From the NCBI GenBank assembly GCA_964527715.1, contig CAZGOD010000005.1:22793-86792 (forward strand): DNA of 64,000 nucleotides. Direction: 5' to 3'. The notes beneath the pieces are model-generated. The model was not told where the DNA came from, did not search any database, and was given only the letters and a program-made list of their open reading frames with translations. The translations under genes were made by a program, and so were the position numbers. Positions 5,550-63,478 of this stretch are shown in pieces; position 1 is the first letter of the stretch; each line of letters starts with the position of its first letter. This DNA is from an uncultured Thermoplasmatales archaeon. Lineage in GTDB: Archaea > Thermoplasmatota > E2 > DHVEG-1.

Positions 5550-7034
5550 TCATAATTCTTTTTCCCCTTTAACTTTCATAAAGACAAATGATAAGACAAA
5601 TGCAGCAATTGCTAAGCATACACCTCCTATCATTAGTGCAAATGTTGAATAATTTTCATATCTCCCTGTGATATTTTCATAAATAACCATTAAAAACAGA
5701 CTGATCAGGATTATTGGATTTACATATTTAATAAGTATTTCCCACCAACGTCCTATTTTTATTTCCGATGTATCATTTGCATGCTTCCTCAATCTTCTAA
5801 TATTAAACATGTATCCTACTACGATACATTCAAAGAGAGCAATTAACGCAAGTCCAAAATTAGCAATGAAATAATCTGTAATTGATAACCAATGAAGACC
5901 ACTACCGGTAGTATATATTAGTCCTGCTAAGAAACCTATAAGGCAAACAATTGCTGTAACTTTTTGTTTACTAATTTTCCATTTATCAGTTATACCAACA
6001 GGTAGAGGTTCAACCATTGAAAACGCGCTATCTATTCCAAATGTTAATAGAGCAATGAAAAATATTATTCCAAAGAACGCTGCTGCAAATGGTAAAAGTG
6101 TTACAGCAGTTGGATATGCAATAAATGCTAACTCCGGACCAACTTTTGCAACTTCAGTTACACCCACCCCAGTTGAATAAGCAAGATATCCAATTACGCT
6201 GAAAACTGCAAATCCTGCAAAAAAACTAGTACCAGCATCAGCTAAACAGGTTATTATTGCATTGTTGTTAATATCAGATTTTTTTGGTAAGAAACTTGCA
6301 TAAGTAATCATTATTCCTCCAGCAAGACTAAATGACCATAAAACCTGTGAATATGCTGCTAGCCATATTTCAGCATTCCATAGTTTTGAAAAATCAGGAG
6401 TAAGATAATAACTAACTCCTTCTATAGCTCCAGGGAGAGTTAACCCTCTAATTGCTAAAATAACAAGTAGTATTGTTGGTAATGGAACAGTTATTAAAAC
6501 TACTTTTCCAATATTTTTAACACCTTTTCGAATTATTAAATAGATTAACAGCCAAATACAAAGTAATCCTAAAACAACTGGTAATCTTATTGACCCAAGA
6601 ATCTCTGGGGCATTTGTTAAACCTAAGAAATCACTGATAAAAAAACCTTCAGAATTTGATCCCCAACGTAAATCAAGAGAATAAATCATATAATTAAAGC
6701 ACCATGCCATTATGACAGAGTAATAAATAACTGTAATAAACTCGACAAGTAGGGGCCACCATCCAAGCCATTCCCATTTACGACCAATTTTAGCAAAAGT
6801 CTTAGGAGCTCCACCCTGGGACCAATGTCCTAATGTAAATTCAAGGATCATTAAGGGAATTCCGAGTGTAAAAATTGCTATAAAGAAAGGAATTAAAAAG
6901 GCGCCTCCACCATGTTTGTAGCACATATAAGGAAAACGCCATATATTTCCAAGTCCTACAGCTGAACCAACTGCTGCCATTATAAAGGCAAATCTTGAAT
7001 TCCAGTGTTCTCTTTTTTCCGAAATCAGGATCAC
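5550..7034 (-). CDS. Sodium-dependent transporter of the neurotransmitter:sodium symporter (NSS/SNF, LeuT-like) family.
   Basis: N-terminal signature W.SR.AFIMAAVGSAVGLGNIWRFPY, 12 predicted TM helices, 494 aa. Confidence 0.9.
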   Translation of the reverse strand: MILISEKREHWNSRFAFIMAAVGSAVGLGNIWRFPYMCYKHGGGAFLIPFFIAIFTLGIPLMILEFTLGHWSQGGAPKTFAKIGRKWEWLGWWPLLVEFITVIYYSVIMAWCFNYMIYSLDLRWGSNSEGFFISDFLGLTNAPEILGSIRLPVVLGLLCIWLLIYLIIRKGVKNIGKVVLITVPLPTILLVILAIRGLTLPGAIEGVSYYLTPDFSKLWNAEIWLAAYSQVLWSFSLAGGIMITYASFLPKKSDINNNAIITCLADAGTSFFAGFAVFSVIGYLAYSTGVGVTEVAKVGPELAFIAYPTAVTLLPFAAAFFGIIFFIALLTFGIDSAFSMVEPLPVGITDKWKISKQKVTAIVCLIGFLAGLIYTTGSGLHWLSITDYFIANFGLALIALFECIVVGYMFNIRRLRKHANDTSEIKIGRWWEILIKYVNPIILISLFLMVIYENITGRYENYSTFALMIGGVCLAIAAFVLSFVFMKVKGEKEL

Positions 7035-7040
7035 CTTTTT

Positions 7041-9845
7041 TTATCCCAGGTTACATGGTTCATATGGGTTAAACGCTGGGTCACCATACAGACAATACTC
7101 TTGGTAACAAACATATTTATTTTCGATAGCTGTTGTCTTTGTCTCTTGATTATTGAATAGACCAAGAGGAGGTGTCCAGTACATCGAATATTCTGCATCC
7201 TCTGGTAGATACCTATTTCTAGCATTTCGTAAAGCTAAACCTACACTGACATCTTTTTCTTTTAGTTCTTGCAACATATTTTCGTACATTTTTTCTCCAA
7301 AATGTGTTTCTGGATAAATACCATTCCTTGCTTTAAGTGAAGTCGAAATAAACCCAGGAATGGTACCAAGTGCCGTCGAACTCGGTCGATATGGTTCAAG
7401 GTATCCACCTGCAACATTCGTTGGCGTAGGTGAAACTATGATTGCATTCATACCAGCATGTAGAAAAGCCTGGCTAATACATGTTCCAGGATGTCTTCCT
7501 TCAATTGCACCAACGAGGCAGCTTTCGAAAAACTTGAATGAGGGCCCAAAATTCATGTTTTCTACACCTCTAACATAGTAATCTCCAAGAGCTCCTAAGG
7601 ATGAACCAGGGCCAAATGGTTTACCGACACGAGCAATTATTTGCAGTAATATTGGTAGAACTACATAACCTAAACCTATACCTGATAAGGCAACATTTCC
7701 AATACCATATCCGGGTTTATCACCGTGACCATTGATAAAAATGAAATTACTATTTTCCTGATCTTCGCCTCCAGTAACCCGGTCTTCTCCGAGGGATAAT
7801 TTTAACTGAAGCTTTGATAACAATAGACGGTTTAACAAGTTAGCTTTCTTTAATAGACTAATGGCCTGGTTACTAAGACCCTTTCGTGATGCTTTGAAAT
7901 AGGTATCTCTAGTTGTTTTAAAGCCCATTGGCTCTAATGAAGTTTTTTGTATTCCATCAGCAACATATTTACTAAATCCTGTTGGCCATTTCATTGGTTC
8001 ATTATAATCTTCAGCAACATGGTCTGTACTACCTAAGTTAGTTGCTAGTGCATAGAGGATAACAGGTGTTGCAAACTCCACACCGCATCCTGTTTGAACC
8101 GTTGCTCTGTCCTTCCAATCACCTAGACCATCAATGATTCTATCATAGAATATTGTTCTTGTAACCAACGCGCTAGCATCTTGCATATCCCAACCAGTAA
8201 TCCTACCAACAATGTTCTCCTGAGTAGGATACTCTGAATAAACGTCATTTTGCACATTCTCCCAGCCAGGAATTGGATCAATATTTCCATAGAGTACATC
8301 AGTTGATGTGCCGCCATATCCGACGGTCGCTTTATATATATACTGCGGTAGAACAGTTGCACCGCCTACTAAAGCAATATAAACTGGATTCTCTAAATAA
8401 TAGTCTCTTAAATCCTTAACATCTCTAGGATCGTTAACTCGGATATTAGCAAGCTTAGCAAGTAACTTATTCAACGGCAAATGGATGTTATTATAGATAT
8501 GATCATTAGAAGCTCCTCTTAACTCTTCGTTACTTCTTGGCATGTAGTGTCCTGGGCAGGTCTCTACCTTTTCAGTTAATACATTATCATTGGCAACAAA
8601 GGCAAATTCGGGCTTACCAAAAATAATACCTCTATGATAAGCCGTCAAATAAGGGGCAATAGAAGAAAGCCCCTTCATCATAGGATAAAGGGGATCACTG
8701 AGCTTTTCAATAGTAACAGTGGCCTTAACCTCACCCTGCTTTTTAACAATCCAGTGGGGAGATGCAGTTACAGTATATTCAGTTCCACCCATGTCGTAGA
8801 GAACTGCCTCAGCATAATATTTATCGACAATCGTGTTACCCTTTGAGTCATATATTGATGGAGAGGTAGTAGTAGAACCACTTAGTAGTCCTTTAACTTT
8901 GAAACCTACATGATCACCTAAAAGGTCTACATGTTCAGGGTTAAGATTAACACCTTCGAACTTGACCAAAGCATACTTATAGTCTTTCGGAATGGTAAAC
9001 TTACCAAGTTCAAAATCGAGGTTTCCATTATTTTGTATTGCCGTTTTTAAAAGTGCGACAAGCTGTATTGAAGATACAGTCTTCAATTTAACAGGGCCAA
9101 AAGTCTCTGTCATACTATCTAAAATATCAGGTTCTCTTACATCAATTGGATTAGTCAGAGTAATATAATTAACATTGCCAAACTTTTCCCTGACTAGATC
9201 AATAGATGCATTAACAATGTCGTTAACATTATCAAATCTTAAAACTTCACCGAAACCTTCGATATCACCACAAACAATCGACTTCTCAACACCAAGATTC
9301 TCAAGAACTTTTTTAACATCGTCATCCAACTCATCAACAACAATGAGAGGTATACTAAGATACGATGCTAAAGGAGCAGCAAGCACTCCAAGGTTATAAC
9401 CAGATTGATTATTCTGGATAATAAGTGCTGCATCGCTGCTCTTCCAATAGCTCTCTGCAATGTCAAGGGAGAGATCCTTTAGAGATCTAGAATCACCAAC
9501 TGCTAGATCTGGAGTTATTCCAATCATATCCTTAGCCCTTATAACAGCACGAGAGGGGTTAATATAATCTTCAATGTAAAGAGGTATAACTCCTGGCTCT
9601 TTATTTTGGTTATAATGAACTGCTAGTGGTGTGACAATAAGTGCAAAGAAAGGATTACTATCTGAAACAGATATTCCACTAGGTAAACTAGAAAAACTGC
9701 CTGAAACATCATAAAAATCCTTTACAGTGATAGATTCACTTATGTTCTCTTCAAATGGATTCCAGACATGTATGCCAATGGATGCTATGATTAATACCAG
9801 CACTCCGCATATAGCGATTAATTTATCTTTCGCTTTTTCTTGCAT
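7041..9845 (-). CDS. Large membrane-anchored extracytoplasmic protein. Putative clan CD (caspase/gingipain-like, C25/C11-type) cysteine peptidase.
   Basis: N-terminal signal anchor. A hydrophobic strand + His-Gly block (FIFINGHGD) and a downstream hydrophobic strand + Ser-Cys block (FKFFESCLVGA), as in clan CD His/Cys dyads. The spacing between the two is longer than in gingipains, so the family call is tentative. Confidence 0.35.
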   Translation of the reverse strand: MQEKAKDKLIAICGVLVLIIASIGIHVWNPFEENISESITVKDFYDVSGSFSSLPSGISVSDSNPFFALIVTPLAVHYNQNKEPGVIPLYIEDYINPSRAVIRAKDMIGITPDLAVGDSRSLKDLSLDIAESYWKSSDAALIIQNNQSGYNLGVLAAPLASYLSIPLIVVDELDDDVKKVLENLGVEKSIVCGDIEGFGEVLRFDNVNDIVNASIDLVREKFGNVNYITLTNPIDVREPDILDSMTETFGPVKLKTVSSIQLVALLKTAIQNNGNLDFELGKFTIPKDYKYALVKFEGVNLNPEHVDLLGDHVGFKVKGLLSGSTTTSPSIYDSKGNTIVDKYYAEAVLYDMGGTEYTVTASPHWIVKKQGEVKATVTIEKLSDPLYPMMKGLSSIAPYLTAYHRGIIFGKPEFAFVANDNVLTEKVETCPGHYMPRSNEELRGASNDHIYNNIHLPLNKLLAKLANIRVNDPRDVKDLRDYYLENPVYIALVGGATVLPQYIYKATVGYGGTSTDVLYGNIDPIPGWENVQNDVYSEYPTQENIVGRITGWDMQDASALVTRTIFYDRIIDGLGDWKDRATVQTGCGVEFATPVILYALATNLGSTDHVAEDYNEPMKWPTGFSKYVADGIQKTSLEPMGFKTTRDTYFKASRKGLSNQAISLLKKANLLNRLLLSKLQLKLSLGEDRVTGGEDQENSNFIFINGHGDKPGYGIGNVALSGIGLGYVVLPILLQIIARVGKPFGPGSSLGALGDYYVRGVENMNFGPSFKFFESCLVGAIEGRHPGTCISQAFLHAGMNAIIVSPTPTNVAGGYLEPYRPSSTALGTIPGFISTSLKARNGIYPETHFGEKMYENMLQELKEKDVSVGLALRNARNRYLPEDAEYSMYWTPPLGLFNNQETKTTAIENKYVCYQEYCLYGDPAFNPYEPCNLG

Positions 9846-20863: not shown

Positions 20864-20900
20864 GAGATAGTAAAAAATGTCTATCTCAAATTTTTTATTT
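20864..20900. terminator. Bidirectional stem-loop terminator (GAGATAG-loop-CTATCTC) flanked by T-runs on both strands.
   Basis: Perfect 7-bp inverted repeat with a 10-nt loop. TTTTTTATTTT follows on the plus strand and TTTTTTCATTTTTTT on the minus strand. It lies between two gene ends. Confidence 0.5.
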
Positions 20901-21320
20901 TGGTATTACTTTTTTTGGTATGTCGATTTCTTCAGTCTTACCAGCATCCCAAATAGCACGGATTGCTAGAAGACCAGCAGCTGGTGCAGCAAATATGAAC
21001 AAGTATCCTGTTATGTTGGTGAAATATGGTTCAATACCTGCCCATGTTCCGATAGTCCATGTGGTAGAAGCTGCGCCTATCATAACTAATATTAGTGCCG
21101 CTATCAAAAATGTTGGTACTTTTTCTTCAGATATATTACCAATCGCGAAGAATGACAGTATACCAACGACAAATCCAAGCACTGCTAGTAATGCTGCGAC
21201 ATATGCGTCCGGATCTGCGTACCAATCGGCTCCAACTATTAAACCGACTAATATTGCTATTATTACTCCTAATAGGAATAACCAACTTCCTATTTTCTTG
21301 AATATTGCTTCCATCTCCAC
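20895..21320 (-). CDS. Small 4-TM membrane protein of unknown family. Paralog of 40165..40596.
   Basis: Shares KIGSW.FL.G..IA.LVGL at the N-terminus and AP.AGLLAI.AIW..GK at the C-terminus with the second copy. Confidence 0.6.
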   Translation of the reverse strand: MEMEAIFKKIGSWLFLLGVIIAILVGLIVGADWYADPDAYVAALLAVLGFVVGILSFFAIGNISEEKVPTFLIAALILVMIGAASTTWTIGTWAGIEPYFTNITGYLFIFAAPAAGLLAIRAIWDAGKTEEIDIPKKVIPK

Positions 21321-21662
21321 TCCTCTATATTTTTATTTACCCCTAAAAATATGATGAGATTATTTAAGTCTTTAGTGTAAAAGAACCAATAAGTGTATAT
21401 GTAGGTGAATAGATACATCCTCTGGAGTATATCTTATAGAGTATTTTGTCAAAAAGTAATTTTTCCCATTTTGACGTTTTTATAAGTTAATCTTATATAT
21501 TTCTAATAATAAATCTTAACATGTTACTCTATAATATCTAAGTAACCCAACAGTGGAGGGGGTCCCAAGTAATTTTAATTCACCTCTTCTTGCATCTTAG
21601 ACCCCCTCTTCAACCCCCTTATTTTATAGGAAAAATTTAAGTTACTAACACTGATATTAATA

Positions 21663-22001
21663 ATGGGAAGGGATATGAAAACAATAATGGTAGTAGATGA
21701 TGAAACAGATATTCTTGAACAGGTAAAATCATCACTTGAGGAAGATGAATATGAAGTTATCACCGCTTCAAGTAGCCGTAAAGCATTAGAGCTACTGGAG
21801 GGAGAAAGAGAAAACGATTTTGATCTAATACTGATAGATACACCCTTACCTGATAAAACTGATACCTCGTCTGCATTGTTTTCAATGGTACCAAAATCAA
21901 AGACATCGATTAATATGGATAAAGATGAAAACTTTTTACAAAAACCTTTCACAAGGGAGCAACTAGTTGATTTCATAAAAAGCAAGATTAGAGTTGATTA
22001 A
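21663..22001 (+). CDS. Stand-alone response regulator receiver domain protein (somewhat atypical REC). The likely start is MKTIMVV at 21675.
   Basis: VVDDETD acidic pocket, acceptor Asp in LILIDTPLPD, K-P in LQKPF. Confidence 0.7.
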   Translation: MGRDMKTIMVVDDETDILEQVKSSLEEDEYEVITASSSRKALELLEGERENDFDLILIDTPLPDKTDTSSALFSMVPKSKTSINMDKDENFLQKPFTREQLVDFIKSKIRVD

Positions 22002-33767: not shown

Positions 33768-36700
33768 ATGCCTACTAAGAAAACACTAGTAATCTACAGT
33801 ATAATCATATTTTCTCTTATATCCCCAGCTTTAACAATAACAGTTAGCTCAGCCTCAGGTCCCCCACCATTCTGGAACCGAAGTTGGTCTTACCGGCAAG
33901 AAATACAAATCCCAATCCCAACAGATAACTCTTTTGCAAAATTTCAACCAATAGACCTCAACATCAAATTTAAAAACCCTTCATGGGCAATAGATGAAAA
34001 CCAGCACTCAATTAGAATCTGCTGCTGGGATGGAAACCAATGGCATGAACTAGAATCACAGATCTATGACCTTAAACACACCGATTCAAACCATATAAAC
34101 AAATGCAGAATTGTTTTTCTAATACCTGAAATAGCAGATGGAAACGAACAATATTTTATATATTACGATGAAAGTAGTAAACCTTCACCTAATTATATAG
34201 ATCACATACAAATCGAAGATGCATATTATTACTATGAACCCATCTCAGATATCTCAGCTGAAGGCGATTACTACAAAATAACCCAAGATGGCGTTATTGT
34301 CTATGGCATAGGACAAAAAGGACAGATCCTAAATCGTAAGATCTCCCAGGCCGTAATTAATTTAGAACCTGGGAGTAAAGAATTTGGTATCATTAATTCT
34401 GATGTTGTAGGTTCTTTTGCTTTTTCTTATCACAAAGGAGTAGAAGAAGAGGACGAAGTCTCATCAGATCAGAAACTTGTTTCCAAAGAGATATTCATCG
34501 ATGGAAATTTAATGGGAGAAGTAGGCATCATCAGTGAATCCTCCAGTAAAAACCTACTTACCACTAACATTTACAAATATTATTATTGTCCCAATAGTAA
34601 CTTTAAACGTATTTCTATAAACGTGAAACACGAAGTCTTAGAAGAATCAATTGTAGAAGGAATAGAAAATGTCGATGGACGTTTCGGCGCATTAGCATCT
34701 CTTAAATCCAGAAGCGAAAGAATACATAGAATGCGCTTCGGTGAAATCCTCCCATACCTACATGTCTACGATGAAAACAATAACATTAGACAATATCATA
34801 TGAACCTAAACCCAGAAACCAAAGACCGAGAATGGATAGTTCCCCTTGAAGATGACTGTGACATTGGCGACGAAGCATGGTTCTCATATGATGAAGGAGA
34901 AACAGGTAAAGCCCATGCAGTTATTTTTTATTCAAATGAAAACGTTGTTAAACAAGGAACTAATGAAACAGATGGCATTCAGATCAAAGTCGCTGAGAAA
35001 GAATACCTAGATATCGTTGGAGCTGAGGTTGACTACGCCGCTATTAACTTCGGTAGAAACTCCTTTGAAAAACACGGCGCCCATGATTTAACTATTCCTA
35101 ATGACCTTATCATAGAGTTTAACGCAGAATTATTCACCACACTTGAAGGCGGATATAACGATGTCATAGAAGAAGCTAAACTTTTTAGAAAACTAGTTAA
35201 ATATCGCGAAGAAGGCAAAAGTGGTTTATTTGAAGGAGAAGAAAACACATACACTTTAACAGTAATACCAAAAATCACAGGTAGAATACTATCCCATCCA
35301 ATTCTATCTAATATCACAGGATTTAATTTACTCAACACCTGGGCAGAATTATACAAAGATGATACACTTATTTCAGTTAGATACCCAGTTAAACCATTTC
35401 TTGGAGCACCAGTTATAAAATTCCCAAAGATACCACCAGGGGAATACATTGTAAAAATCTATCATCAACTCGGGAAACGTGAAAAATGGTATATCGGTGT
35501 TGAACCTGTTAAAATTGAAGAGGATACCAAACTACCAATATTTTGTACCTGGCAAAAAAACATAAAAATATCCTCCCTCGATCAATATAACAATGGCATA
35601 CACGGCATAGAATTAACCATATTAAAAAATGATACCATCATCGTTAAAAACGAAACACTAGAAAACGGACTAATAGAATTTAAAATCCCGTTTAGCCTAC
35701 GTGAAAACTATGTTTTAAAAGCTTTCTACAAAGGTTTCATCATCTATGAAAAAGAAATAAAACCAATGAAAAAAAAGATCGATATCACCCTACATTTATA
35801 TGATTTAACTATAGACGTAAAAGATAAACTCGGCCTACCACCAGGCGTTGATGTCCGTCCATTTTTAATAAGCTCAGAAATGTACAACCCATATGAGATA
35901 ACACCTGAAAACATCGGATCTGGTAAATACATTTTTAGAAACATACCCCCTGCGATCTATGATCTTCAAATATCATTTGGTAGATTCTCTGATAAAAAAA
36001 CCATTACACTACCCAGCGATAGCGATGTTATAAATATCAAATTCACCGCATCATTTAACCTAGACATAGAATTATTTGACGTACATGGAAACCCAATTCA
36101 AAACAACAATCAAAAAATAGACATAATAAGAAACGGACAAATAATACATGAATCAATAGAACCACATGAAAAAATAAACCTACCACCAGCGAAATACACA
36201 ATTAATGTTCACTCTGATGATGAATTAACTGCTACAAAAAACATACAATTAACCAACGATAAAAACCTAAAAATTGTTACAACACAAAAATCAATAATAC
36301 CCCTCCTAGTCATAGGATTAATTATAGTTTTCATAGGAGAAATAATTGTATTACTCATTTTCAAAAGAATTTCTTTAAACACCTTTTTGAAACTATTAGC
36401 CATGGCCCTCATACTAGCATCATTATTCCAACCATGGTGGACATTAAACGCTTCAAGCAATGACTCCCTAGCTACTAAAAACACTGAGACTTTTATACTA
36501 CCACAGGTAACAATAGAAACAATTAATTACAATGGTAAAACAAATCTAGATCTTGCAACAATACCAGAAATATTCACTGATTTCTTAGGAGCTCTATTAT
36601 TTATCGTAGTATCAGGTTTTGTTTTGATGGGTATAAGCTTTTTACCAAACATCTTTTTAAAACGACGGTATGCAAAAATATTAATTTCCGCTAGCATCAT

Positions 36701-36968
36701 ATTTTTAGTATTAGTAGCAGTAGCTTTTTCATTTGGTATGTCAAAAATATGTGAAATCGGTCTAGGCAGCCTGCAAGGAGAAGGACCTCTTGAAGTAACT
36801 CTACCAAACAGTGAAACAGCTTTTATGTCTGCTAACTGGGGTTTAGGCCCTGGTTTTTACCTATGTATCTTAGCAACGGCTATTACAATAATCGCAGGTT
36901 TAATTGATTCAATTAAAAAAGAAAACTGGCCAAAAGCACTTCGAAATAACAAAATTTTAAAATTCTAA
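33768..36968 (+). CDS. Large (1066 aa) surface protein with an N-terminal signal peptide and a C-terminal cluster of about 4-5 TM helices. Hypothetical.
   Basis: Hydropathy only. Mostly beta-rich extracytoplasmic sequence with no recognised catalytic motifs. Confidence 0.5.
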   Translation: MPTKKTLVIYSIIIFSLISPALTITVSSASGPPPFWNRSWSYRQEIQIPIPTDNSFAKFQPIDLNIKFKNPSWAIDENQHSIRICCWDGNQWHELESQIYDLKHTDSNHINKCRIVFLIPEIADGNEQYFIYYDESSKPSPNYIDHIQIEDAYYYYEPISDISAEGDYYKITQDGVIVYGIGQKGQILNRKISQAVINLEPGSKEFGIINSDVVGSFAFSYHKGVEEEDEVSSDQKLVSKEIFIDGNLMGEVGIISESSSKNLLTTNIYKYYYCPNSNFKRISINVKHEVLEESIVEGIENVDGRFGALASLKSRSERIHRMRFGEILPYLHVYDENNNIRQYHMNLNPETKDREWIVPLEDDCDIGDEAWFSYDEGETGKAHAVIFYSNENVVKQGTNETDGIQIKVAEKEYLDIVGAEVDYAAINFGRNSFEKHGAHDLTIPNDLIIEFNAELFTTLEGGYNDVIEEAKLFRKLVKYREEGKSGLFEGEENTYTLTVIPKITGRILSHPILSNITGFNLLNTWAELYKDDTLISVRYPVKPFLGAPVIKFPKIPPGEYIVKIYHQLGKREKWYIGVEPVKIEEDTKLPIFCTWQKNIKISSLDQYNNGIHGIELTILKNDTIIVKNETLENGLIEFKIPFSLRENYVLKAFYKGFIIYEKEIKPMKKKIDITLHLYDLTIDVKDKLGLPPGVDVRPFLISSEMYNPYEITPENIGSGKYIFRNIPPAIYDLQISFGRFSDKKTITLPSDSDVINIKFTASFNLDIELFDVHGNPIQNNNQKIDIIRNGQIIHESIEPHEKINLPPAKYTINVHSDDELTATKNIQLTNDKNLKIVTTQKSIIPLLVIGLIIVFIGEIIVLLIFKRISLNTFLKLLAMALILASLFQPWWTLNASSNDSLATKNTETFILPQVTIETINYNGKTNLDLATIPEIFTDFLGALLFIVVSGFVLMGISFLPNIFLKRRYAKILISASIIFLVLVAVAFSFGMSKICEIGLGSLQGEGPLEVTLPNSETAFMSANWGLGPGFYLCILATAITIIAGLIDSIKKENWPKALRNNKILKF

Positions 36969-57241: not shown

Positions 57242-57673
57242 GTGAATAATCCAATAATAAAGAAAGTAGAAAACAAAGATGAACTAAAAAAAGTTATTGA
57301 GATACGTAAACGTGTTTTTATACAGGGTCAGAATGTACCTGTTGATATTGAACTGGATGGATTAGATTCTGAGGCTACACATTTTATCATGTATCTAAAT
57401 GATAAGCCGATAGGTTGCGCGAGAATTCGTAAAAATAAATATGTGAAGCTAGAACGAATAGCAATTATCGAGGAGTATCAGGGTAAAGGATTTGGTGAAA
57501 AACTTACAGAATTTTTGATAAATTACTGTAAAAACATGGGTTTTGATGAGATAATTTTACATTCTCAGACTTACGCAACTGGTTTCTACAAGAAACTTGG
57601 TTTTAAAAGCCGAGGTGAACCATTTTATGAGGCAAATATTGAGCATGTAGAAATGTATCTAGATATTAGTTGA
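57242..57673 (+). CDS. GNAT family N-acetyltransferase.
   Basis: Acetyl-CoA-binding motif A RIAIIEEYQGKGFGEKL. Confidence 0.8.
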   Translation: MNNPIIKKVENKDELKKVIEIRKRVFIQGQNVPVDIELDGLDSEATHFIMYLNDKPIGCARIRKNKYVKLERIAIIEEYQGKGFGEKLTEFLINYCKNMGFDEIILHSQTYATGFYKKLGFKSRGEPFYEANIEHVEMYLDIS

Positions 57674-59125
57674 TTCTCTGATTTTGTTTTTAGTGTATAA
57701 TCCTTTTATGTATATTTTACCCCATGCAAAAGATACCAAAGATCCAGTGATATTTGCTATTACAAGAGCCCACCATATTCCTACAAGTCCAAGGTTGAAT
57801 AGACAGCATAACGCTATTGCAAATATAGGTGTTAATGTAATTGTCCTTAGTAATGTGGCTATTAAAGAGTAAATACCTTTCCCCGTTCCTTGGAACATAG
57901 CCGATGATGCAATTCCTATAGCAGCACCAGGGTAAAACAAGCAAGAAATTTTTATAAACGTCTCTATGTCTGGACGTAACTCAGGTAATCCCTGTCCAGT
58001 TGTGAAAAGAAGTGTTATCAACGGTGCAACAATAAAAATCGCAGTAGCAACTATAATTTCAACTATTAATCCAACTTTTACAGAAAACAAAAAAGCAGTA
58101 TTGAGTTTGTCATAATTTTTTGCACCATATGCCGCACCTGTAACAGTGATAACTGCAGTTGCAAGGCCTAGTAGCGGTAAAATTGCAGTCATAACAACTC
58201 TCCAGCCTATGGTATAAATTGTAATTCCTGCATCGCCAGCTAGAACAATTTTTAGGATAATAATATTGATTATCAGCATTGTAAAAGACATTGAAAGTTG
58301 TTGTATTGATGCTGGAAAACCAACTTTAAAAATATCAAATATTATATCTTTTTTAAATTTGAAATGTCTAAGTTTAAAATCAACATATGTATCTTTTTTG
58401 GAAAATAACCAGTAAATAATTATCAAGGTAGTAATCGTCATCGAGAGAATTGTTGCATAAGCTGCACCAGCTACACCTAGTTTTAAAGTGTATATAAACA
58501 ATGGATCCAGTATAATGTTAAGTAATGTACCAAGAACTATAGCATACATAGCTCTTTTAGCATCACCTTCACCTCTTAAAATCGCTGTTCCAACATTTAT
58601 AAAAAATATTACTATACTACCCGCAAAAATAATTTTACCATAGGTCACAGCATATGAGAGAGATTTACCAGCACCAATAATATTTAGTAAAGGTTCAGAT
58701 AAAAAGAACAAGAGTATACTAAAAATTATTGCAATGATTATGGTTGTTATAATAGAATGTTCAGCAACGTTATCCGCGCCCTTCTTATCATCAGCACCTA
58801 TCCTCCTAGAAATTGCTGAAGAAGCTCCAACACCGATACCAGTGGATAGTGCTATCGCCATCATAAAAAAAGGAAATATCAGACCAATTGCAGCAACACC
58901 AAGATCACCAATTCCAGGCACGGTTGAATCTGTAAAAAATTCTTTGCCAATTCCAGATACAAATAATGTGTCAACAAAATTATAAATTGTTTGAACTGAC
59001 ATTGCAATTATCATTGGTATTGCTAGTTTGATAACTGCTTTTTTAGGGTCACCTAATAATGTTTCTACTCCTTTAGTATGATTTGATTTATTAGAAGAAG
59101 ATGCGTTTTTCACAAAGCGGGACAA
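57659..59125 (-). CDS. MATE family efflux transporter.
   Basis: 12 TM helices and the two-fold repeat organisation typical of MatE. 488 aa. Confidence 0.75.
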   Translation of the reverse strand: MSRFVKNASSSNKSNHTKGVETLLGDPKKAVIKLAIPMIIAMSVQTIYNFVDTLFVSGIGKEFFTDSTVPGIGDLGVAAIGLIFPFFMMAIALSTGIGVGASSAISRRIGADDKKGADNVAEHSIITTIIIAIIFSILLFFLSEPLLNIIGAGKSLSYAVTYGKIIFAGSIVIFFINVGTAILRGEGDAKRAMYAIVLGTLLNIILDPLFIYTLKLGVAGAAYATILSMTITTLIIIYWLFSKKDTYVDFKLRHFKFKKDIIFDIFKVGFPASIQQLSMSFTMLIINIIILKIVLAGDAGITIYTIGWRVVMTAILPLLGLATAVITVTGAAYGAKNYDKLNTAFLFSVKVGLIVEIIVATAIFIVAPLITLLFTTGQGLPELRPDIETFIKISCLFYPGAAIGIASSAMFQGTGKGIYSLIATLLRTITLTPIFAIALCCLFNLGLVGIWWALVIANITGSLVSFAWGKIYIKGLYTKNKIRESTNI

Positions 59126-59344
59126 CCTTAAAACTTATTTCAACTTTTCGATTAATATTGTTATATCTTACATTTGCAGCCTTTGTCTCTTAAATTTTTA
59201 ATTTGTTCTTCAATGGAATTAACAAATTCTTTTTGTTTATTAAAATTGACCATAATGCATGTAGCTCTCTATGTTCACCTAATAAATGATTATGGCATAA
59301 TTTATTGGTAGGAATATCCCATATTCTCATACTCTGCTACCTGT

Positions 59345-60106
59345 TCATGTAGGTCTTAGTGTTCCTGCAAAGACTTGCCATGCAAGTGCTGATTTAGCTA
59401 CCAGACTGAGTATAATATACACCCTCTCTCCATACAAGTAGTCTCTCCATTTACCGATTTTCTTGTACTGTAAAACCATGTTAACTGCGAATAAATTGAA
59501 GAAAATCGCTATTGAAACAAAAATACCTATTACAAAAGTAGGGATAACATCTATAGCTGCTATAAGTGGTATAAATATAACTAACCAAGGAACAAAACCT
59601 GCAATACATCCAATAGTGTATGACGTCCAATTTGTTTCTTTTGTTGTTTGATTATGTATCTCCATCATAAGTCCCATAAGATTCATAACTGCGGTAAGTG
59701 TAAACAAAGCAAGTAATGTTCCAAAATCATAAATTGCTGTTAACATCGCAATTATTACAATCATTAATGATGCGCTAAAAGAATATTCATACCATCTAGC
59801 AGGGTTTATATGTTTTTTAAGTTTTTCAACATACCATTCATATAAAACCGTTGATAATAGGAAATGTGCTGTTGCAGATATAAATAAAAATATTGCTACT
59901 AAGGGCCCGATTCTAACATCAAAAAAAGCTATAGCCTCTGAGCCTATCCCACTACCAGGTATATAAATTGGCTTATTGTAAGTCACAGTAACAAAACTAT
60001 CATTACTTAAAACAACCATTAAAATACCTTGGATAAGATGAATAAAACCCATCGCTCCATTAAATTGTCTCAAACCTCTAAAAACAATCTTTTTATCTTT
60101 TTTCAT
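59345..60106 (-). CDS. Heliorhodopsin, a 7-TM microbial rhodopsin with inverted topology.
   Basis: 253 aa with 7 predicted TM helices. N-terminal L(R/Q)QFN...G..HL(I/L)Q. TM3 RW.EYS.S(A/S)S.MIV.IA with the counter-ion Glu. GCIAG.VPW. Last helix ILSLVAKSALAWQ.F.GTL with the Schiff-base Lys. All are hallmarks of characterised heliorhodopsins (48C12, TaHeR). Confidence 0.75.
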   Translation of the reverse strand: MKKDKKIVFRGLRQFNGAMGFIHLIQGILMVVLSNDSFVTVTYNKPIYIPGSGIGSEAIAFFDVRIGPLVAIFLFISATAHFLLSTVLYEWYVEKLKKHINPARWYEYSFSASLMIVIIAMLTAIYDFGTLLALFTLTAVMNLMGLMMEIHNQTTKETNWTSYTIGCIAGFVPWLVIFIPLIAAIDVIPTFVIGIFVSIAIFFNLFAVNMVLQYKKIGKWRDYLYGERVYIILSLVAKSALAWQVFAGTLRPT

Positions 60107-60218
60107 TTTCTATAAAACTCCAAACTCATTAATCAATTACTGTAATATTGTTTTTCTAGATAACTTTTCCCTTATACAACATATTGTTTAAATATAACTT
60201 CCCTATTCCGAGATTAAT

Positions 60219-60602
60219 ATGGCACTATGGCAAGGTAAAAGTAGAAGAAGTGAAACCGGCCGAAGAATCCGCTATTCACGTAGTAAAAGAAAATTTGAAA
60301 TAGGACGAGAACAACACCTTACTACTATTGGCCTTACAACACTTAAAAAAGTACGAACCAAAGGTAAAAACCAAAAAACTCGTGCTAAAACCACTAATAT
60401 TGCTCATGTAGTTGACCCTAAAAACAATAAAACAACTAAAATAGACATATTATCTGTAATAGAAAACAAAGCTAATATCCACTATGTGCGAAGAAACATA
60501 ATTAACAAGGGTGCCATTATTGAAACAAAACTAGGAAAAGCACAGGTTACATCTAGACCAGGACAATCAGGAACTATAAACGCTGTTCTTCTTTCAAAAT
60601 AA
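60219..60602 (+). CDS. rps8e: 30S ribosomal protein S8e.
   Basis: MALWQGKSRRSETGRR N-terminus, 127 aa. Confidence 0.9.
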   Translation: MALWQGKSRRSETGRRIRYSRSKRKFEIGREQHLTTIGLTTLKKVRTKGKNQKTRAKTTNIAHVVDPKNNKTTKIDILSVIENKANIHYVRRNIINKGAIIETKLGKAQVTSRPGQSGTINAVLLSK

Positions 60603-60625: not shown

Positions 60626-60901
60626 ATGGTGTCCAGAGGAGAGGACAAATACGTTATATGGCCTATTTATTTTGACAAAACAGTATCAAGACTACAGGGT
60701 AGAAAAGTCTCTAAAAAATATGCTATTGAAAAACCCACCATAGAAAACGTTACAAAAGCTGCTAAATCCCTTGGTCTAAACCCCGTGGTGGAACAAAATA
60801 TTCAATATCCCTCAAGAAATTGGAAAAAAGAAGGAAGAATACTGGTTGATAAGAAAGACTCTAAAAGCAAAATACTAGTAAAAATAGCCAACAAACTATG
60901 A
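60626..60901 (+). CDS. srp19: Signal recognition particle protein SRP19.
   Basis: IWPIYFDK..SR..GRKV.K..AIEKPT N-terminus, 91 aa. Adjacent to rps8e as in many archaea. Confidence 0.85.
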   Translation: MVSRGEDKYVIWPIYFDKTVSRLQGRKVSKKYAIEKPTIENVTKAAKSLGLNPVVEQNIQYPSRNWKKEGRILVDKKDSKSKILVKIANKL

Positions 60902-63478
60902 TTATTTTTTACTTGCTTTTTTTAATGTGAAATGAAACTTTGCACCTTTATCTTTACCAGGACTTTCCACCCAGATCCGTCCACCATGTTTCTCAACTAT
61001 ACGTTTACAAATAGGTAAACCCAACCCACATGATTCAAAATTAGACCGCGACTCATCTCCCTTATAAAACTCATCGAAGATATGATTCATTTGTTCCTCT
61101 GATATACCGATACCAACATCACTAACTGTAACAGTCACTGTATCTTCATCTTGCTCTGCATCAATGTTAATTTTGTCCCCCTCAGAGCTATATTTAACCG
61201 CGTTATCAATCAAGTTATCAAACAACTCAAGAATTCTCAGTTTATCCGCTTTTACTATGAGATCATTTTTAACAGCGTTATCAATTTTTACCTTTTTCTT
61301 CTCAAGAATCACTTTGTTATTAACAATAACTCTATTTATCTCATCAGATAAGTTAACATTTTCAATATCAAGCTTAGTACTCGGTGAATTCAACTGAGTA
61401 AGCTCCAAAGTGTCAACGACAAGGTTTTTCATATAATCAACATTCTTCAAAACAGCCTCAAGTAACTCCTGTGACTTAGGATCATTCTGCCTTTCTTTAA
61501 CAATTGGTAAAAGAGTTGTAAGTGGAACCATCGGATTTTTAAGATCATGACCAAGCTGCCCAATAAACTCATCTTTCTGCTTCAGCAGCTTTTCCACTTC
61601 AACAGTCCGTTCTCTCACCTTTTTTTCAAGGTTTTTATTTAAATCTGTAAGTTGCCTCATCGCACTATTCCTCTGAACAGCTACAGCTGCTTGATTCACA
61701 AAAGTCTGAATTGTATCAAGACTCTCTATCACATGATCTTTATAGGCAACTATGGAAACATTACCAAATACCTTCCCATCTTTAACAAGCCCCATAGTAC
61801 AAATCTCATCAGTGTTCATCAAATTTCTAATAGCCTGACAAACCTCTTTAGACTGATGAGAATGAAGTTTTTTAAACTCTTCTTTAGAGACTTTTACTAA
61901 ATCACCATTTAAAATATTCTTCTTCCATTCCTCATCATTAAATTCTAAATTAAAACCAACAAGATCTTCTTCATTTTCAATTTCGCCTATATTCTCAATT
62001 TTTTTATCAAAACCATATGTCCTGTTTATCTCAAATTTATTTGTTTTTTCATTGAACAAGGAAATACAAATAAAAGCGTTACTTGCAAGTTCATGAATTT
62101 TTTCCCCTATATAACCATAGACATCCTCTTCAATTGGAAACTGGTTAAGCTCCATAGCAGTTTTAGATAAGAAATCAGATTTCTCCTCCGCTTTTTTAAA
62201 ATCGGTTATATCACGTGAAATCCCCATAGTACCAATTATTTCACCTTTCTTATTATATCTTGGAATTTTAGTAACAGAAACCCAACGACTATTGCCCTTT
62301 TTATCACTCAGTTTTTCAATCTTATTTATGATAGGTTCACCTGTTAACATAATATCTGTGTCATCCTGATGAATATCTTTTGCTTCGTTTTCTGGTAAAA
62401 AATCAAAATCAGTTTTACCTAGCATCTTATCAGGAGTAATATTAGAATGCTCTGCTTTTGCCTTATTCACCTTGATAAACCTACTATTTTTATCTTTAAA
62501 ATAGACCGAATCAGGGACATTATCAAGAAGTGACTCCAGTAACTCCTGCTCAGCCTCCATCTTATTCTCAATACGTTTCCGCTCACTAATATCTTTTACA
62601 ATACCGATAGATCCAACAACCAATCCATCAACATTTTTCAAAACACTCAAAGAAATGTCAACATCTAAAGGATCAAGTTTCTTACGTAAAACCCGGGTTT
62701 CAAGATGATGCTGCATTCCCTTATCTCGGACCCTCTCAGATCTAATCTTTTTCCATTCCACCGATGAATAAAGAGAACTCACAGGTTTCAAATACAAATC
62801 ATCCTCACCCATATTAAGCAATTTCTCAGCGTATTTATTCCAAGAAACAATCTCCTCATTCTCATTAGTAAGCATAATGCCCACTGCAGAGTTCTCAAAA
62901 ACAGTCTTATACCTGCTTTCAAACTCAGTCAACGTCCTCTCCGTTTTTTTCAAACGAGTAATATCCGTAACAATACCAACAGAACCAACAATCTTACCCT
63001 CACTCCCCCTAAGAACAGATAACGAAACTTCCACATCAAAAGGATCACCCTCTTTCTTATTCATTTTTGTTTCAAGTTTGTATTTCATTCCTTTTTGTCG
63101 GACGTCTTCTTTCCGTATTTTCTTCCATTCCTTAGGGGGGTATAGTATGCTTACATGTTTTAGATATAGGTCTTTATCTGTCATGTTGAAGAGTTCTTCA
63201 GCGTATTTGTTCCAGGATACAATTTGTTCTTTTTCATCTGCGATAGTTATTGCTACAGCATAGTTTTCAAAAATAGTCTGATATCTCTCTTTTATCTCCT
63301 CAAAATCAATATCTGATTCTTCTCTCTCGATTTTTTCTCTAGAAAGATTTAGAGTTTCATCGTCAACTGAGTTATCAGGTTTTTCTTCTGATTCAAGTTT
63401 TGTAACTGTTTTATTATTCAATTCATTAAGCCGTTCTTCTTCCCTAAGCTCTTTTACAATATCAGGAATCATTCTCAT
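60902..63478 (-). CDS. Soluble multi-sensor histidine kinase: two tandem duplicated PAS domains, a third PAS, a GAF-like region, HisKA and HATPase_c.
   Basis: PAS1 and PAS2 are about 60 percent identical (YQTIFENYAVAITIADEKEQIVSWNKYAEELFNM vs YKTVFENSAVGIMLTNENEEIVSWNKYAEKLLNM). H-box LGHDLKNPM. G-box GLGLPICKRIVEKHGGRIWVES. No TM segment. Confidence 0.85.
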   Translation of the reverse strand: MRMIPDIVKELREEERLNELNNKTVTKLESEEKPDNSVDDETLNLSREKIEREESDIDFEEIKERYQTIFENYAVAITIADEKEQIVSWNKYAEELFNMTDKDLYLKHVSILYPPKEWKKIRKEDVRQKGMKYKLETKMNKKEGDPFDVEVSLSVLRGSEGKIVGSVGIVTDITRLKKTERTLTEFESRYKTVFENSAVGIMLTNENEEIVSWNKYAEKLLNMGEDDLYLKPVSSLYSSVEWKKIRSERVRDKGMQHHLETRVLRKKLDPLDVDISLSVLKNVDGLVVGSIGIVKDISERKRIENKMEAEQELLESLLDNVPDSVYFKDKNSRFIKVNKAKAEHSNITPDKMLGKTDFDFLPENEAKDIHQDDTDIMLTGEPIINKIEKLSDKKGNSRWVSVTKIPRYNKKGEIIGTMGISRDITDFKKAEEKSDFLSKTAMELNQFPIEEDVYGYIGEKIHELASNAFICISLFNEKTNKFEINRTYGFDKKIENIGEIENEEDLVGFNLEFNDEEWKKNILNGDLVKVSKEEFKKLHSHQSKEVCQAIRNLMNTDEICTMGLVKDGKVFGNVSIVAYKDHVIESLDTIQTFVNQAAVAVQRNSAMRQLTDLNKNLEKKVRERTVEVEKLLKQKDEFIGQLGHDLKNPMVPLTTLLPIVKERQNDPKSQELLEAVLKNVDYMKNLVVDTLELTQLNSPSTKLDIENVNLSDEINRVIVNNKVILEKKKVKIDNAVKNDLIVKADKLRILELFDNLIDNAVKYSSEGDKINIDAEQDEDTVTVTVSDVGIGISEEQMNHIFDEFYKGDESRSNFESCGLGLPICKRIVEKHGGRIWVESPGKDKGAKFHFTLKKASKK

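Follow-up and report, generated by a model that had tools for sequence, protein, structure and literature searches.

An intact heliorhodopsin gene beside a recently deleted pyrimidine-dimer glycosylase gene in an uncultured Thermoplasmatales archaeon

The physiological role of heliorhodopsins (HeRs) has been pieced together partner by partner. The HeR of Trichococcus flocculiformis (TfHeR) binds a cyclobutane pyrimidine dimer (CPD) photolyase and stimulates it ~3-fold (Shim et al. 2022, PMC9769723), OcHeR up-regulates the multidrug ABC transporter OmrDE (PMC11109279), and glutamine synthetase is a further partner (PMC9529153). Among archaeal members, TaHeR from Thermoplasmatales archaeon SG8-52-1 shows neither ion transport nor a light-driven pH change; its photocycle takes more than 1 s, and its absorption maximum lies at 543–555 nm (PMC9385722). 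HeRs of Thermoplasmatales that carry an N-terminal zinc ribbon (Znf-HeRs) adjoin carotenoid genes, photolyase, UvdE and occasional histidine kinases (Bulzu et al. 2021, PMC8612252). Here we describe a HeR gene in a 64-kb stretch of DNA from an uncultured Thermoplasmatales archaeon (contig CAZGOD010000005.1, positions 22,793 to 86,792), hereafter called the window. The gene is intact and selectively maintained, and the only new element at its locus is a recently deleted pyrimidine-dimer glycosylase gene beside it, of which sister lineages retain an intact copy. We consider it probable that the protein is a light sensor or regulator of the TaHeR clade whose setting is the response to light damage. 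The features that carry this argument are as follows.

59345..60106, minus strand: HeR gene, 253 amino acids (aa), ATG start, short form without an N-terminal zinc ribbon
59161..59330, minus strand: remnant of a Pyr_excise pseudogene, recognized by a PF03013 match and tblastn, beginning 14 nucleotides (nt) past the HeR stop
59227..59235, minus strand: deletion junction, 160 bp lost, with AAAAAGAA microhomology

A 253-aa minus-strand open reading frame (ORF), which the original prediction had read as a HeR with seven transmembrane (TM) helices and four characteristic motifs, was recovered at exactly these coordinates, and the reading held throughout: each of the three findings named there as refuting it (no profile match, no lysine in TM7, a better type-1 match) was looked for, and none occurred. 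The protein matched Pfam PF18761 with 312 bits (E = 3.2e-93, cut-off 26.7) over profile positions 1–242 of 242, and the NCBIfam equivalog NF038020 'heliorhodopsin HeR' with 332 bits (cut-off 100). PF18761 was the sole family at E ≤ 0.01 in the Pfam scan, with no match to the type-1 family Bac_rhodopsin. When the PDB was searched with phmmer, TaHeR (6is6/7u55) ranked first (E = 2.4e-110), followed by 48C12 (E of about 1e-52 to 7e-52). An AlphaFold2 model (pLDDT 78.7, pTM 0.71) showed the seven TM helices and a long β-hairpin in extracellular loop 1 (ECL1; residues 38–65, with strands at 38–49 and 53–65). In Foldseek comparisons, this model gave a template modelling score (TM-score) of 0.90 against 6is6 (E = 1e-25, 71% identity) and of 0.83 against 48C12, whereas the best type-1 rhodopsin reached 0.60 (E = 6e-4). 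A type-1 rhodopsin identity was ruled out by the missing Pfam match and a TM-score of just 0.60. The ORF at 59345..60106 is a genuine, full-length HeR of the TaHeR clade and not a chance ORF.

All four motifs were present and aligned to TaHeR and 48C12. The N-terminal LRQFNGAMGFIHLIQ aligned to LQNFNRIAGVFHLLQ of 48C12, RWYEYSFSAS in TM3 holds the counter-ion Glu107 (TaHeR Glu108, 48C12 Glu107), GCIAGFVPW was invariant in the alignment with both proteins, and SLVAKSALAWQ in TM7 holds Lys238, the lysine of the retinal Schiff base (TaHeR Lys238, 48C12 Lys241). Residue invariance was judged from alignments that comprised TaHeR, 48C12 and 28 relatives from databases. In the numbering of the window HeR, the residues His23, Gln26, His81, Arg104, Glu107, Ser111, Glu149, Glu227, Ser234, Lys238 and Trp243 were invariant, Asn101 is a further key residue, and Arg104 and Glu227 form the second ion pair in the Schiff-base cavity. 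These invariant residues are those described for the TaHeR structure (PMC9385722; bioRxiv 10.1101/2025.11.27.691015). Ala103 (codon at window positions 59798–59800) stands in place of 48C12 Phe103 and of TaHeR Tyr104, which was described as lining the Schiff-base cavity (bioRxiv 10.1101/2025.11.27.691015), and the alanine is invariant in 30 close relatives aligned. This exchange may widen the cavity, or alter anion binding or colour.

A cytoplasmic N-terminus, as the original prediction had expected, is also predicted here, because the distribution of Lys and Arg fits such an inverted topology: 6 of these residues occur in the N-terminal 14 aa, 4 in the TM2–3 loop and 5 in the TM6–7 loop, against 1 in each of the predicted outer loops (positive-inside count). 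By analogy with characterized relatives, this membrane-embedded protein would bind all-trans retinal at Lys238, with the protonated Schiff base balanced by the single counter-ion Glu107, and would absorb green light at ~540–555 nm. Its photocycle would be slow, lasting seconds, without ion transport across the membrane, and its cytoplasmic face would contact partner proteins, leading to light sensing or regulation.

The window encodes no Blh/BCD, carotenoid oxygenase, lycopene cyclase, or phytoene synthase or desaturase in any ORF of at least 110 aa, which bears out at this ORF length the claim that blh and crt genes are missing from it; in six ORFs without a Pfam match that were rescanned at E ≤ 1, nothing related to retinal or carotenoids appeared. 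Such an absence is compatible with uptake of carotenoids from outside, as in the case of a two-chromophore HeR with an exogenous xanthophyll antenna, and a 2025 preprint proposed that >90% of HeRs, including TaHeR, possess a lateral carotenoid-binding fenestration (bioRxiv 10.1101/2025.11.27.691015). Alternatively, the protein might transport protons like the viral V2HeR3, which is a proton transporter (PMC9448325). However, TaHeR, at 71% identity, shows no light-driven pH change (PMC9385722), the antenna idea comes from docking and bioinformatic analyses, and an antenna alone defines no output. A light harvester or ion transporter therefore appears very unlikely to us.

We estimated the ratio of non-synonymous to synonymous substitution rates (dN/dS) of the HeR gene against four relatives and obtained values of 0.043, 0.068, 0.142 and 0.065. 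This range (0.04–0.14) indicates that the gene has been kept under strong purifying selection. Three independent contigs from public metagenomes (L001–L003) carry the identical coding sequence as well; they belong to the same species as the window and are 100% identical to it. Two further contigs, L087 and L088, come from relatives at 87–90% nucleotide identity.

The original prediction stated that no neighbour was related to photobiology, but this overlooks a remnant of a UV-lesion glycosylase in the 219-bp gap between HeR and the gene for a MATE-family transporter (MatE). Pyr_excise is the family of pyrimidine-dimer DNA glycosylases founded on T4 endonuclease V. The gap contains two short same-strand ORFs in different frames, 59190..59330 (46 aa) and 59161..59253. 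The first of them, which starts with MRIWDIPTNKLCHNHLLGEHRELHALWSILINKK..., matched PF03013 (E = 2e-8, 34.9 bits, cut-off 23) over only profile positions 1–38 of 81, and 59229–59330 encodes aa 1–34 of the glycosylase. The second piece (...QKEFVNSIEEQIKNLRDKGCKCKI) lies at ~59170–59235 in the other frame, with a stop at 59161–59163, and matches aa 85–107 of the intact 109-aa protein. Both pieces were matched, again in different frames, by tblastn with the intact protein of L031. Intact 109-aa genes are found in L088, L086 and L031, and an intact homologue scored 89 bits against PF03013. In particular, L088 contains the intact gene in the same place, between HeR (14 nt away) and MatE (47 nt away).

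The missing segment was mapped by a MAFFT alignment of the DNA of the window, L088 and L087. The deletion takes out codons 35–84 of the glycosylase; L088 bears the 8-mer AAAAAGAA at both edges of the segment lost in the window, and in blastn the match between L088 and the window is split at 59227/59235, where its two halves overlap by 9 bp. One clean deletion of 160 bp with such edges is the signature of replication slippage or microhomology deletion. Because 160 is not a multiple of 3, the frame is shifted after the deletion, and this frameshift together with the half-covered domain makes the remnant a pseudogene. The remnant is 100% identical across L001–L003, and its presence in three independent assemblies shows that the deletion is not an assembly artefact. 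Moreover, the 34 remaining N-terminal codons equal those of L088 in protein sequence; the deletion is therefore recent relative to the divergence of the lineages.

The recent loss of the adjoining glycosylase through deletion, and the lack of a chromophore pathway within the window, could be taken to mean that HeR is itself an intact but idle relic in a dark-sediment organism that is losing its genes for the light response one after another, with HeR to follow the glycosylase. However, the HeR ORF is complete with every functional residue present, its dN/dS values are low, its coding sequence is the same in three independent metagenomes, and short-form HeRs make up a large, conserved clade among database relatives. 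We regard a relic as extremely improbable.

To place the remnant in a wider context, ORFs at most five genes from HeR were clustered in 79 loci, the clusters were named by Pfam, and the counts were refined by tblastn over 80 genome loci, which come from other species and include 10-kb flanks. The following neighbours were counted within 10 kb of HeR.

17/80 loci: unannotated secreted protein of ~216 aa
13/80 loci: DUF523-DUF1722 (YbgA-like)
13/80 loci: UbiA prenyltransferase
12/80 loci: ABC ATPase with an N-terminal zinc ribbon
12/80 loci: phytoene synthase (10/80 within 5 kb)
10/80 loci: PNPOx-like protein
9/80 loci: CDF cation-efflux transporter
9/80 loci: UvdE
9/80 loci: PAS kinase
7/80 loci: photolyase (7/80 within 2 kb)
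4/80 loci: MsrA
3/80 loci: Pyr_excise

Photolyase, UvdE, DUF523-DUF1722 or Pyr_excise occurred ≤5 kb from HeR in 17 of the 80 loci. Pyr_excise was found near HeR in the clade of the window (L086, L087 and L088, besides the remnant itself) and, among the genome loci, in L031, L039 and L076. In L086 (positions 5862–7880), HeR is followed 2 nt later by MsrA, and then by MsrB and an intact Pyr_excise gene on the opposite strand; as judged from the encoded families, this is a compact cluster for the repair of photo-oxidative and UV damage. Since HeR adjoins Pyr_excise, MsrA/MsrB, photolyase, UvdE and carotenoid genes in relatives, a light-damage setting is the most probable one. The ancestral arrangement would have comprised HeR and a glycosylase gene 14 nt downstream in a response to UV lesions and methionine oxidation, and in the window organism the 160-bp slippage deletion has since inactivated the glycosylase gene, with HeR still intact. 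The pattern of HeR with UV-repair and carotenoid genes reproduces a link already published in 2021 (PMC8612252), and our search of the accessible literature found no paper joining HeR to the Pyr_excise glycosylase family. To the archaeal HeR neighbours, the locus adds a class of repair gene, the T4-endonuclease-V-type glycosylase, and one relative adds MsrA/MsrB.

Several observations weigh against this reading. What is said of chromophore binding, spectrum and signalling is carried over from proteins that are 42–71% identical, and dN/dS reflects long-term selection, which cannot tell whether HeR has still been needed since the recent deletion. The agreement of the predicted 109-aa glycosylase with T4 endonuclease V in hhalign is moderate (55% probability, E = 1.2e-4), and this 109-aa protein had no significant sequence match in the PDB. 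The neighbour counts include shared ancestry, so that they represent perhaps ~3–4 independent arrangements, and they lack a genome-wide background. In addition, the glycosylase link is narrow, with HeR in 3/80 metagenome loci baited with the glycosylase and the glycosylase ≤10 kb from HeR in 3/80 HeR loci. Finally, no pathway for retinal or carotenoids was seen within the 64-kb window covered.

A general coupling of HeR with the glycosylase is unsupported by the three HeR-containing loci among the 80 glycosylase-baited ones. Throughout 487 kb of these baited loci, UvdE, photolyase and phytoene synthase were not found by the same queries, although the loci are a weak control because their taxa differ. 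A narrower proposal is that HeR and Pyr_excise form a functional pair in one Thermoplasmatota lineage, possibly as an operon given the 14-nt gap, which makes light-independent UV repair responsive to visible light in parallel to TfHeR and its photolyase. We consider this pairing rather unlikely. If it were true, the window organism would be a natural knockout of the glycosylase partner that still keeps HeR, and the HeR kept after partner loss would therefore have at least one further output.

The remaining genes around HeR in the window are listed below.

57242..57673, plus strand: GNAT acetyltransferase (PF13673, PF00583), convergent with MatE
57659..59125, minus strand: MATE-family efflux transporter, MatE (PF01554, E = 1e-49), downstream of HeR and the pseudogene
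60107..60218, no strand: intergenic region between the divergent HeR and S8e genes, AT-rich, 112 bp
60219–60602, plus strand: ribosomal protein S8e (PF01201), divergent from HeR
60626–60901, plus strand: SRP19 (PF01922), divergent from HeR
60902..63478, minus strand: PAS-PAS-PAS-HisKA-HATPase sensor histidine kinase, 858 aa, identified by Pfam

The MATE, GNAT, S8e and SRP19 genes, which had been named as flanking genes, were all confirmed by Pfam. For MatE, the true start is likely the GTG at 59113, which lies 47 nt past the pseudogene stop and gives the 484-aa protein called in L001 and L088. TATA-like runs were read by eye in 60107..60218, which presumably holds the promoters of both HeR and S8e. 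No DNA_photolyase match (PF00875) was found anywhere in the window, and neither a tRNA gene nor an Rfam family at the gathering threshold was found in the whole 64 kb.

The first of these neighbours to be weighed as a signalling partner is the histidine kinase. HeR could be the input of a two-component pathway that signals to the PAS-PAS-PAS kinase, in line with the general proposal of Bulzu et al. 2021. The kinase gene shares its strand with HeR, lies 795 bp upstream of the HeR start and is kept in place in L087 and L088; homologous PAS kinases occur ~1–2 kb from HeR in L014, L020, L046 and L059, and HisKA genes near Thermoplasmatota HeRs have been reported (PMC8612252). However, the oppositely transcribed S8e-SRP19 pair lies between HeR and the kinase, and the two are therefore not in one operon. 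A PAS kinase was found ≤2 kb from HeR in 4/80 loci and ≤10 kb in 9/80 loci over 1.19 Mb, or ~1 per 130 kb; this is no denser than the 1 per 64 kb of the window, so that enrichment is not demonstrated. Moreover, L014 and L020 share the same arrangement and hence are not independent, and the window kinase seems soluble, with no LOV motif or other light-linked feature. On balance, we judge a two-component pathway to be unlikely.

On the downstream side, HeR might regulate the MATE pump in a light-dependent manner, by analogy with OcHeR, which provides a precedent for a HeR controlling a drug exporter (PMC11109279). HeR, the glycosylase gene or its remnant, and MatE are encoded on one strand with gaps of 14 and 47 nt, and because of these short gaps the three may belong to one transcript. 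However, MATE and ABC exporters are unrelated families, other genes follow HeR in L004 and L086, and the adjacency does not recur: no MatE homologue was present ≤5 kb from HeR in the 80 genome loci, where the single match was 7.1 kb away on a halobacterial contig. Regulation of the MATE pump is thus, in our estimation, highly doubtful. All four of these alternatives (kinase, MATE pump, transport or antenna, and relic) are weaker than the light-damage reading.

The synteny behind these comparisons was determined by tblastn with S8e, SRP19, MatE, GNAT and aIF5B on the same 80 loci. None of the 80 contained S8e, SRP19, GNAT or aIF5B ≤10 kb from HeR, and the arrangement of kinase, SRP19-S8e, HeR and MatE occurred only where HeR is ≥90% identical: in L001–L003, and in L087 and L088, relatives with 90–94% identical HeR. 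Even with similar HeRs it can be absent: in L004 (HeR 89% identical) the genes on either side of HeR encode a C25 peptidase and an MCM-like ATPase, and in L086 (92% identical) they are purE and MsrA. A conserved synteny of HeR with housekeeping genes was ruled out, as these neighbours adjoin HeR only in contigs of the same species or genus. Because the arrangement is limited to close relatives, the housekeeping context is lineage-specific and says little about function, and the 'clear genomic context' emphasized in the original prediction is of little informative value. The adjacency of S8e, SRP19 and GNAT to HeR appears to be incidental; the locus shows that these conspicuous housekeeping neighbours are uninformative, and it opens no new category.

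The survey also yielded observations on other neighbours of HeR. The commonest was the protein of ~216 aa with a signal peptide (MKRLIIVFFTLISSILCLLPTVLAHVPYLEHRDSS...), for which 16 of its 17 loci lie ≤2 kb from HeR, mostly immediately adjacent. For example, L007 encodes it at 264–914 on the minus strand, with HeR at 1217–1957, and it is also found in L019, L022, L029, L025, L018, L012, L020, L055, L065, L016, L031 and others. It had no Pfam or NCBIfam match, was absent from the HeR locus of the window, and was present in 8/80 Pyr_excise-baited loci. We propose it as a candidate HeR-associated protein, as yet uncharacterized. An ABC ATPase (ABC_tran with a DrrA C-terminal domain) with an N-terminal CxxC...CxxC zinc ribbon was encoded at L008:7767–8927 on the plus strand and in 11 other genome loci, within ~2 kb of HeR. 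Its ribbon resembles that of the Znf-HeRs (MVEIKIQCPTCKHQMTVQVQPDETIFITCPQCGTHGKYTYG), and a zinc ribbon common to HeR and a neighbouring ABC ATPase may be a shared docking module. CDF transporters (Cation_efflux with ZT_dimer) were located 50–330 bp from HeR in 8 loci (L014:784–1713 on the minus strand, L016, L020, L065, L046, L052, L009 and L024). Metal transporters in this position are notable because zinc binding has been reported for TaHeR and 48C12 (as cited, at second hand, in PMC8612252).

Elsewhere in the window, ORFs at 20895–22001 overlap each other on both strands and have no family matches save one, a 112-aa ORF at 21663–22001 on the plus strand that matches only the first half of a response-regulator receiver domain (profile positions 1–54 of 111). 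The stretch may hold a regulator gene that has been truncated or frameshifted. A 1066-aa ORF at 33768–36968 on the plus strand, between genes for a PKD-domain protein and a cytidylyltransferase, had no Pfam match at E ≤ 1e-4.

The archaeal host and housekeeping surroundings named in the original prediction were corroborated by an A-type ATPase operon, aIF5B, S8e, SRP19, Nop56/58, Pus10, Rpo4, KsgA and LonB within the window. The ATPase A subunit shares 86% identity with a protein of 'Ca. Thermoplasmatota archaeon' and 84% with its counterpart in Thermoplasmatales archaeon SG8-52-1, and the named genomes with relatives of the window HeR are nearly all metagenome-assembled genomes of Thermoplasmatota. 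From these similarities, the host is taken to be an uncultured member of the Thermoplasmatota that shares its lineage with the TaHeR host SG8-52-1, and the window HeR is therefore vertically consistent with TaHeR and not an unusual archaeal occurrence. Like SG8-52-1, members of this lineage are usually recovered from sediments. The weight placed originally on an archaeal HeR is diminished accordingly, as TaHeR comes from the same lineage and the link to UV-repair, carotenoid and histidine kinase genes was published in 2021 (PMC8612252). The clade of the window HeR has been well studied, the protein is an ordinary member of it, and its exact sequence is already present in public metagenomes.

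Among characterized proteins, TaHeR (SG8-52-1; crystal structures PDB 6IS6, 7U55, 7CLJ) is the closest to the window HeR. The two are 71% identical over their full length, almost equal in length and members of the same clade; both are of the short form that has no zinc ribbon, and both possess Lys238, the counter-ion Glu (107 here, 108 in TaHeR), the Arg–Glu227 pair, His23, His81/82, Gln26 and Trp243. However, they differ by ~29% sequence divergence, by one-residue indels in ECL1 and in the TM5–6 loop, and by Tyr104 of TaHeR at the position of Ala103.

In sequence, the Znf-HeRs of Thermoplasmatales (Bulzu et al. 2021) are nearest to the window HeR, at 68–75% identity, and ~two thirds of its 120 best database matches are forms of ~300–320 aa. 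An association with UV-repair genes is common to both. However, the window HeR lacks the ~50-aa N-terminal CxxC...CxxC domain, and the reported repair neighbours of Znf-HeRs are photolyase and UvdE, whereas the neighbour here is a Pyr_excise glycosylase remnant. A zinc-ribbon form was ruled out for the window HeR, which starts 8–9 residues before the conserved core and has no CxxC-(17)-CxxC; the relatives P0045, P0057 and P0086 carry ~50 extra residues with two CxxC pairs. Indeed, such an extension is not possible, because only 112 bp separate the HeR start from S8e.

The lost partner can be compared with the T4 endonuclease V/DenV family (PF03013). The Pfam threshold is exceeded by the remnant with 34.9 bits and by its intact 109-aa relatives with 89 bits, and the archaeal EHRELH aligns to T4 EYRELP, which includes the catalytic Glu23. 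However, the proteins are only distantly related, with 138 aa in T4 endonuclease V versus 109 aa in the archaeal proteins, which have a C-terminal CxC motif, and the window copy is frameshifted and lacks codons 35–84. A CPD glycosylase/AP-lyase activity of the intact 109-aa form is thus putative.

Finally, the pair of TfHeR and photolyase resembles the locus in that HeR is encoded beside an enzyme that removes pyrimidine dimers in both. The hosts differ, bacterial for TfHeR and archaeal for the window HeR, as do the partners, which are a light-dependent class 2 CPD photolyase and a small light-independent protein of the glycosylase family, now a pseudogene in the window. An operon of the TfHeR type does not exist at this locus, where no photolyase gene stands beside HeR. 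Nevertheless, with its demonstrated binding and stimulation via cytoplasmic loops, the TfHeR–photolyase pair is the best experimental model for a pairing of this kind. To this model, the locus adds a natural partner-loss comparison, in which a clean glycosylase deletion separates sister lineages that are 87–90% identical in DNA, with HeR intact in both, and which could be used to ask whether the function of HeR depends on its glycosylase partner.

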